DNA of 64,000 nt from contig JAJRTJ010000002.1 in NCBI GenBank assembly GCA_024278335.1, positions 17,008 to 81,007 on the forward strand, read 5' to 3'. Shown here piece by piece: positions 53,101-54,153 of the stretch. The DNA comes from an archaeon. GTDB taxonomy: Archaea > Nanobdellota > Nanobdellia > Pacearchaeales > GW2011-AR1. The notes under the pieces were generated by a model. It was not told where the DNA came from, searched no databases, and worked only from the letters and a program-made list of their open reading frames with translations. The number at the start of each line of letters is the position of its first letter. Positions within the stretch are counted from its first letter, which is position 1. Position numbers and translations under genes: made by a program.

Positions 53101-54153
53101 ATGCAAATTTGTGAAAATATTTATTACAAAATTTATGAATGGAAAAATCTTGTTCTTGCCTACAAAAAGGCAAGAAAAGGGAAAACAAAAAAAGATTATG
53201 TAATTGAATTTGAAAAACAACTAGGTAAAAATTTAAGACAATTAAGATTTGAACTAATGACCTTAATTTATTTTCCACAACCACTCAAAACATTTATTTT
53301 ACAAGACCCAAAAACTCGCAAAATTTCAAAATCAGATTTTAGAGACCGGGTGGCCCACCACGCAATTTGCAATATCCTTGAACCTATTTTTACAAAATCT
53401 TTCTTGTGCAAATCAAAAAGAAAAGGGAAATCTCTTTGCTATTAAAAGGTTCGAGCTTTTTAAAAGAAAAATTACTAATAACCTTCAATCCTCTGCTTTT
53501 TGTTTAAAATGCGACATAAAACATTATTTTCAAGAAATTGATCCCCCTGTTCTTTTTGGGATTATTCAAAGAAAAATTAAAGATAAAAAAGTCATTTGGC
53601 TGATAAGGAGAATCGTAGAGAGAGAGAGAGAGAGAGAGAGAGAGAGAGAGAGAGAGAGAGAGAGAGAGAGGCACGCAGTTCTATTAATAGAAAAGGCATG
53701 CCGTTAGGTAATTTAACTTCTCAATTTTTTGCTAATGTTTATTTGCATGATTTAGATTATTTTGTAAAGAATAAATTAAGATGCAAGTATTATCTCCGCT
53801 ATGTTGATGATTTCGTCCTTCTTCACAAATCAAAAAAACAGCTTGAAATTTGGAAAGATGAAGTAAATCTTTTTTTGCAAAACAGATTAAAATTGGAATT
53901 ACATCCCAAAAAATCAAAAATAATCTCCTTCTCAAAAGGAGTAGACTTGGTTGGATTTAGAATTTTCTGGAAACACAAGCTTATTAGAAAAAGGAGTATA
54001 AGAAAAATGTTTCATGCTCTAAATAGATACAACAAAGATCAAATTCCCTATGAAAAATTCAAAGAAATATTTCAAGGACGGAACGCTTATACTTCTTGGA
54101 CAGATAGTTATAAATTAGTGAAAAAGATTACTAAGAAAATACACCTCCCCTAG
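53101..54153 (+). CDS. DGR-type reverse transcriptase, reading frame disrupted twice as sequenced (frame 1 to 2 near 53436; frame 2 to 1 at the (AG)27 tract)
   Basis: RT motifs YFPQPLKTFILQDPKTRKISKSDFRDRVAHHAICNILEPIF; CKSKRKGKS | LFAIKRF; LKCDIKHYFQEID; GMPLGNLTSQFFANVYLHDLD; YLRYVDDFVLL; LELHPKKSKI...VDLVGFRI. The motifs are spread over ORFs 52984..53445, 53378..53707 and 53596..54153. Confidence 0.75.
53617..53670 (+). repeat. (AG)27 dinucleotide microsatellite inside the RT gene
   Basis: 54 nt of perfect AG repeats, translated as (ER)n / (RE)n. The RT frame changes across it. Confidence 0.95.

Follow-up and report, generated by a model that had tools for sequence, protein, structure and literature searches.

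Slipped-strand phase variation at CT/AG repeats is a feature of the Helicobacter pylori genes sabA, hopZ and babB. In oipA of the same species, changes in the number of CT/AG units shift the reading frame, and both ON and OFF alleles occur in natural populations (PMC10564699). In Campylobacter, Neisseria and Haemophilus, poly-G/C contingency loci provide stochastic, reversible bet-hedging (PMC11868660, PMC3315296), and the known cases of recoding use homopolymers or heptanucleotide sites and a single conserved direction of shift (PMC1088944, PMC5009743). Here we describe an (AG)27 tract that lies, out of frame, inside the reverse transcriptase (RT) gene of a diversity-generating retroelement (DGR) on a stretch of 64,000 nucleotides (nt) of archaeal contig JAJRTJ010000002.1, referred to below as the window. 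From comparison with related loci we consider it probable that the tract belongs to a class of contingency loci, in which the RT genes of a clade of DGRs in DPANN archaea carry a slippage-prone repeat, either (AG)n or poly-G according to lineage.

An earlier note on this DNA, made from the sequence alone, had reported a perfect (AG)27 between RT motif 2, read in frame 2, and motifs 3-7, read in frame 1. Raw sequence, Tandem Repeats Finder and three-frame translation all agree: at positions 53617-53670 the program returned a repeat of period 2 with 27.0 copies and 100% matches, preceded by frame 2 (…VIWLIRRIVE) and followed by frame 1 (…RKGMPLGNLTSQ…YVDD…). Searching the window for (AG)6 gave 22 matches, all within this tract, against 0.00 expected from dinucleotide-preserving shuffles. 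The offset between the flanks is +2, and the loss of one AG unit or the gain of two joins them. Three-frame translation and alignment with 21 homologs were used to delimit the RT segments, and the gene proved to be spread over three frame segments, not two:

53101-53400, forward strand: RT N-terminal segment, frame 1, with start codon, ARKGK motif and motif 1 (DPKTRKIS), stopping at the deletion junction (translation, alignment)
53400-53401, forward strand: junction left by an 11-nt deletion, where frame 1 gives way to frame 2 (tblastn, DNA alignment, protein alignment)
53402-53616, forward strand: RT middle segment, frame 2, SCANQKEKGN…, with motif 2 (CDIKHYF) and the helix VIWLIRRIVE, running into the repeat (translation, alignment)
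53617-53670, forward strand: (AG)27 microsatellite, out of frame, in the loop that separates RT motif 2/2a from motif 3 (raw sequence, Tandem Repeats Finder)
53671-54153, forward strand: RT C-terminal segment, frame 1, with ARSSINRK-GMPLGNLTSQ (motif 3/4), YVDD (motif 5), thumb and stop codon (translation, PF00078, alignment)

The earlier note saw only the junction at the repeat and overlooked the one at 53400/53401, where the window reads AAATCT^TTCTTGTGC and homologs read AAATCTTTTATTTATGATTCTTGTGC. A tblastn search across this point gave a single uninterrupted match at 175 of 175 homologous loci and, for the window, two high-scoring segment pairs in different frames; in the DNA alignment the 11-nt gap is confined to the window. 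The deletion takes out the conserved (F)IYD residues, whose Y is shared by at least 90% of the aligned homologs. Because it both adds a frameshift and removes conserved residues, slippage alone cannot restore the window RT. The prediction that (AG)26 or (AG)29 would fuse the reading frames is therefore correct for the middle and C-terminal segments and fails for the full-length RT, given the deletion upstream. Judged from these two lesions, the window RT is most likely permanently inactive and its tract the relic of a switch; the simplest reading is an irreversible loss of the RT at a time when it was out of frame, and relaxed constraint may have let the repeat expand.

The behavior of the repeat was followed in relatives. 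Metagenome contigs were scanned for (AG)6 followed, after a gap of 15-45 nt, by degenerate codons of MPLGNLT, and at each locus the frame of motif 2 (D[IV]xx[YF]F) was scored against the frame of motif 3. All census figures given here are among the matches listed, which comprise at least 120 loci and 102 unique scorable alleles of relatives. Tracts of 12-40 nt (6-20 units) were found at the same RT loop, so that the window tract, at 54 nt, is the longest seen. Only 13 of the 102 alleles were in frame and 89 (87%) were out of frame, distributed by tract length as follows:

Tract 12-16 nt: in frame 4, shifted +1 12, shifted +2 17
Tract 17-21 nt: in frame 6, shifted +1 20, shifted +2 19
Tract of at least 22 nt: in frame 3, shifted +1 11, shifted +2 10
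All tract lengths: in frame 13, shifted +1 43, shifted +2 46

The in-frame fraction was about 12% in every length class, a depletion of about 2.6-fold. With the window added (103 alleles; +1 and +2 shifts 43 and 47), the approximate binomial probability against an expectation of one third in frame was p=1.3e-6. The earlier note had proposed comparing AG-tract length across related genomes as a check, and the comparison bears the idea out for the class: length varies and the reading frame toggles. At the out-of-frame locus L098, an open reading frame (ORF) tool found an ORF for the N-terminal half that crosses the 40-nt tract and then stops, and one for the C-terminal half that starts at the ATG of MPLGN. 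A scan of viral contigs for the tract-plus-motif pattern returned 0 matches. In GTDB representative genomes the best 80 RT loci were at most 60% identical and included a single long AG tract (L003, 27 nt, in frame); this set is biased to intact genes and was excluded from the ON/OFF frequencies.

In-frame homologs show what the repeat encodes. Among 117 full-length homologs, the stretch from the WLI helix to GMPLGN contains two or more consecutive (RE) or (ER) units in 22, and GGG or longer in another 15. The (ER)n or (RE)n linker that the earlier note expected of an in-frame tract is thus present in in-frame homologs, at exactly this loop. An AlphaFold model of the conceptually repaired window RT was of moderate quality (predicted local distance difference test score, pLDDT, 71.7); in it the ER run extends the preceding helix, with low confidence beyond, which as a model is consistent with a tolerated surface insertion.

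Two contigs were seen to carry more than one RT locus. The 24.6-kb contig Ga0209542_10005738 has two separate AG-tract RT loci (L121 and L103), and contig AQRL01000028 of the Nanoarchaeota single-cell genome AAA011-G17 has two DGR RTs (L059 and L079).

Near-identical contigs differ in tract length. Loci L098 and L167, from sister samples, aligned over 9446 nt with 0 mismatches and one gap, their tracts being 40 and 34 nt; L088 and L181 aligned over 1004 nt with 0 mismatches and have tracts of 19 and 17 nt; between L125 and L195, with tracts of 26 and 22 nt, there is 1 mismatch. The tract is hypermutable relative to its surroundings. A further comparison sets L164 (20 nt, in frame) against L096 (18 nt, out of frame) across some 1.4 kb that includes the variable repeat (VR) of the target gene, the template repeat (TR) from which it is rewritten, and the N-terminal half of the RT. 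The sole differences were 16 VR positions, all of them TR adenines, and one AG unit; therefore mutagenic retrohoming and tract slippage are both faster than ordinary point divergence. A further observation on this pair concerns the sequence beyond the compared stretch (L164 8813-9791): past L164:10093 the two diverge abruptly (36 differences in 900 nt), and the change suggests that a recombination boundary lies within the C-terminal half of the RT.

The out-of-frame relatives, judged by their sequences, are not decaying genes. Among 57 out-of-frame alleles with the whole gene on the contig, 51 have kept both RT halves intact (motif 1 upstream; YVDD and about 150 amino acids (aa) to a stop codon downstream). 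Ratios of non-synonymous to synonymous substitution rates (dN/dS) between out-of-frame alleles were 0.06-0.3, with synonymous sites saturated for most pairs; the sole informative pair, L161 and L183, which are in different shifted frames, gave a dN/dS of 0.11 in both halves. Out-of-frame loci also have complete cassettes in which VR/TR mismatches fall mostly or wholly at TR adenines (for example 17 of 17, 14 of 14, 18 of 18 and 25 of 25).

A second kind of repeat occupies the same loop. When the C-terminal half of the RT was used in a protein search, the best 120 matches were all 149-241 aa long and 96 of them began exactly at the M of MPLGN; since the choice of candidates may depend on length, we take this search as evidence for the abundance of split genes, not for their frequency. 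Many of these split RTs lie on long contigs, up to 394 kb. The DNA of seven split RT genes, picked regardless of repeats, was inspected, and all seven break at a simple repeat in this loop: two at (GA)n (L201, L202) and five at poly-G of G8-G12 (L203-L213, e.g. L205:1400-1500 and L207:1400-1500), the latter in sister RT lineages and out of frame. Several split alleles recur identically in independent samples or assembly pipelines, some in three. Runs of G8-G12 are improbable in these AT-rich genomes. Taken with the in-frame homologs that contain GGGG, the splits at G8-G12 point to convergent use of two repeat types, (AG)n and poly-G, at one site.

The mechanism we propose would begin with an insertion-tolerant loop between RT motif 2 and motif 3 that houses a slippage-prone repeat. 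Replication slippage would gain or lose repeat units, and each AG unit would rotate the downstream catalytic half (motifs 3-7) through the three frames, one in three giving full-length RT, to which the in-frame tract would contribute its (ER)n linker. RT synthesis, and hence adenine-directed diversification of the target, would toggle stochastically and reversibly. An RT left on would keep rewriting an adapted variable region, so that out-of-frame alleles would be favored; lineages would fix a good VR and then mostly be sampled with the RT off. The counts, equal for +1 and +2 and low in frame, agree with a symmetric random walk in which a constitutively active mutator is selected against. We infer that the frame would be restored at the DNA level, that selection favors out-of-frame alleles, and that the skew is adaptive. 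The relatives have what is expected of a contingency locus, namely a coding-region repeat that is long enough to slip and differs in length between near-identical contigs, and both in-frame and out-of-frame alleles, the OFF gene being otherwise intact; this last feature is lacking in the window. The earlier proposal that RT expression could be phase-variable by slippage is thus supported for the class, in which tracts vary, frames toggle and genes stay intact, and is not supported for the window copy with its 11-nt deletion.

Several points weigh against a DNA-level switch. The alleles are phylogenetically non-independent and are drawn from the matches listed, so the binomial probability is approximate. 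Length variation was seen between assemblies, which is a proxy for heterogeneity within one population. The tract in the window, with its second lesion, cannot work as a switch, and its exceptional length may reflect relaxed constraint. Searches of indexed assemblies with the exact aP1/L12, L10 and DGR target proteins found no second assembly of the window's genome to confirm the tract length or the deletion. Finally, short tracts of 6-8 units, which are expected to slip rarely, are just as often out of frame (about 87%) as longer ones; therefore slippage at the RNA level or on the ribosome fits as well as a DNA switch.

That last point leads to the alternative that best survives, recoding at the level of expression, which we take seriously while judging it rather unlikely. 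Here the out-of-frame allele would be the functional default, and slippage by RNA polymerase or the ribosome would yield low-level full-length RT, the repeat throttling RT dosage rather than switching it on and off. (AG)n encodes (RE)n in whichever frame it is read, and perfect re-pairing is possible 2 nt away, both for an AGA- or GAG-decoding tRNA and for an RNA-DNA hybrid. Besides the constant out-of-frame fraction at every tract length, recoding would account for intact halves and purifying selection even between two out-of-frame alleles with a synonymous divergence (dS) of 0.15-0.30, and for the clean VR/TR signatures of out-of-frame loci; the 8-12 nt of poly-G at the same site resemble known homopolymer sites of transcriptional slippage. 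However, the direction of shift is not conserved (+1/+2 of 43/46, or 43/47 with the window), whereas programmed frameshifts normally have one conserved direction. Dinucleotide-repeat slippage is absent from a comprehensive recoding review, and no stimulatory element was found, although no search for one was made. The same lineages also contain in-frame alleles, and the DNA itself demonstrably varies in tract length. Recoding and a DNA switch are not mutually exclusive, and it seems to us unlikely, specifically, that out of frame is the working state, with RT routinely made by 2-nt slippage on (AG)n or 1-nt slippage on poly-G on top of length changes in the DNA.

We also considered a split RT of two polypeptides, with translation restarting at the ATG of GMPLGN and the purine tract as ribosome-binding site. 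This was rejected as unsupported: the Met is conserved also where there are no repeats, 15-45 nt separate the tract from the ATG, and in-frame alleles occur in the same lineages.

A third explanation is that the loop is a functionless mutational hotspot that tolerates insertions and acquires repeats by chance; the out-of-frame alleles would be recently killed RTs and the window copy their typical end state. The second, irreversible lesion of the window RT is what this would predict, 6 of the 57 fully covered out-of-frame alleles bear an extra lesion, and loop length among homologs ranges over 6-44 aa. We nevertheless hold the hotspot to be quite improbable. If 87% of alleles are dead and yet nearly free of second lesions, an implausibly high rate of gene death must be combined with long persistence of the clade; dN/dS is about 0.1; two unrelated repeat types recur at the same loop in AT-rich genomes; and the VR of the near-identical pair L164/L096 has turned over specifically at adenines. 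Least credible, and in our view very improbable indeed, is that stutter in the polymerase chain reaction (PCR) or the assembler made the tract or its length and that the gene is really in frame. Stutter does readily affect a pure dinucleotide repeat of 54 nt, and the window's genome was not met again in other indexed assemblies, but the RT sequence proceeds correctly on both flanks of the tract, the rest of the window is full of intact ORFs, tracts of 12-20 nt are well within read and k-mer lengths, more than 100 contigs share the pattern, drawn from many projects, assemblers and platforms and with one, AACY023782845 (L104), based on Sanger reads, and identical out-of-frame alleles come from independent samples or pipelines (L087/L147/L193, L208-210, L211-213, L203/L204). 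A chimeric assembly join at the low-complexity tract was rejected as well, the RT motifs being in the correct order across it.

The DGR to which the window RT belongs includes the following features upstream of the RT gene, whose start codon, at 53101, comes directly after the TR:

52038-52823, forward strand: DGR target gene, 261 aa, with the VR near its 3' end (ORF list)
52607-52687, forward strand: VR, 81 nt (comparison with TR)
52998-53078, forward strand: TR, 81 nt with 32 adenines, directly upstream of the RT start (comparison with VR)

VR and TR differ at 15 positions, 14 of them TR adenines. The lone non-adenine mismatch, at 52668 (T in TR, C in VR), could be drift after RT inactivation or a non-adenine error of the RT, and fits an RT that is active or dead. 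A second VR was not found within the 64-kb window, and the target gene had no Pfam match. The RT, conceptually repaired, matches PF00078 (E 2.2e-16) and has the motifs GMPLGNLTSQ and YVDD; its closest solved structure is a DGR RT (8ub7_A, E 3.7e-57), and a protein search returned thousands of DPANN RT homologs at about 60% identity. The element thus has an RT of the DGR clade and an adenine-biased TR/VR pair with the VR at the 3' end of a target ORF, and lacks an intact RT ORF. Its sequence identifies it as a DGR by ancestry that is now probably inactive, because the RT carries two lesions, the 11-nt deletion and the out-of-frame (AG)27. An Avd-like gene was not recognized beside the DGR (51358-51750, minus strand, and 52824-52997), where the 130-aa ORF at 51358-51750 has no Pfam match and no dedicated Avd search was made. 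Directly 3' of the VR, where VR/TR similarity stops, lies a G-rich stretch (52688-52724, ATAGTGGGGGTGGGGTGGGAAGACGCGCC), conspicuous at 31% GC; it may be a boundary element of this DGR or one like the initiation of mutagenic homing (IMH) site.

The window has a GC content of about 31% and densely packed intact ORFs. Just downstream of the DGR, on the minus strand, are archaeal-type ribosomal protein genes (60S acidic P1/L12, L10/P0 with insertion domain, and L1), and the nearest RT homologs are in metagenome-assembled genomes of Nanoarchaeota, Woesearchaeota and Pacearchaeota; on these sequence grounds the host is therefore a DPANN-type archaeon. The gene at 56301-57923 (minus strand) encodes a predicted surface protein of 540 aa, rich in Asn and Thr, with a Big_13 Ig-like domain and a C-terminal transmembrane segment. 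A G8 run in this gene encodes GGGGG near the C-terminus.

That run is one of several. The earlier note had called the window repeat-poor apart from the (AG)27, and for dinucleotides this is so, the second-longest runs in the 64 kb having 5 units, but G/C runs of at least 7 nt are about 7-fold over-represented. Twelve runs of 7-8 G or C were counted, at 927, 2752, 11461, 17080, 25582, 31990, 47630, 47829, 56443, 58882, 60449 and 63343, where a first-order Markov model predicts 1.7 and none of 200 simulations gave more than 7. Every one lies in an intact ORF and reads as G on its sense strand; such runs could be additional sites prone to slippage, or they could reflect no more than a habit of using GGG codons.

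If the proposed switch is real, it would offer a simple account of how DGRs are restrained so that useful variants escape overwriting: a hypermutable repeat in the RT gene would act as a stochastic switch or throttle on a targeted mutator, a two-tier form of bet-hedging, and would provide a well-populated example of archaeal repeat-based contingency loci. If out of frame were instead the working state, a dinucleotide repeat would be a recoding signal of a new kind, one that sets the dose of a mutagenic enzyme. There is also a practical consequence: because the RT is split at the repeat in 89 of 102 (87%) unique relatives, such elements would be undercounted or misclassified by DGR surveys that require an intact RT ORF and by automatic annotation that reports a pair of 'partial' RTs.

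A literature search that included an archaeal DGR paper (PMC4372165) and a DGR survey (PMC5758913) did not find repeats or frameshift control in DGR RT genes. The closest solved structure for comparison is the RT of Bordetella phage BPP-1 (bRT; PDB 8ub7 and related), which the window element resembles in TR/VR adenine mutagenesis, in the …GNLTSQ… motif and in YxDD. In the bRT structure the equivalent loop is minimal (…LPDE-GVGIPIG) and without a repeat, and to our knowledge no repeat-based control of bRT has been described. The split DGR RTs are also like genes expressed by slippage or frameshifting (insertion sequence (IS) elements, dnaX, and poly-A rescue in endosymbionts), in that a slippery repeat joins two overlapping frames. 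They differ from known recoding in that both directions of shift are equally common and the DNA tract itself varies.

The likeness to poly-G/C contingency loci lies in the G8-G12 runs in the RT loop of sister lineages, with out-of-frame alleles on long contigs; the differences are the host, an uncultivated archaeon, and the presence of two repeat types on one protein loop. With the outer-membrane protein genes of H. pylori, the nearest analogue in mechanism, the DGR RTs share a pure CT/AG repeat in the coding region and a gene that is intact in its OFF alleles. The H. pylori repeats, however, lie in the 5' signal-peptide region of genes for surface proteins in a bacterial pathogen, whereas those of the DGR RTs lie mid-gene, between catalytic motifs, in DPANN archaea. 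Slipped-strand phase variation is itself well known; what would be new here is a repeat-based contingency switch in a DGR reverse transcriptase, reached convergently from two repeat types. In comparison with H. pylori, such a switch would gate a mutagenesis engine rather than a surface structure, and its in-frame alleles are markedly depleted (about 13%).

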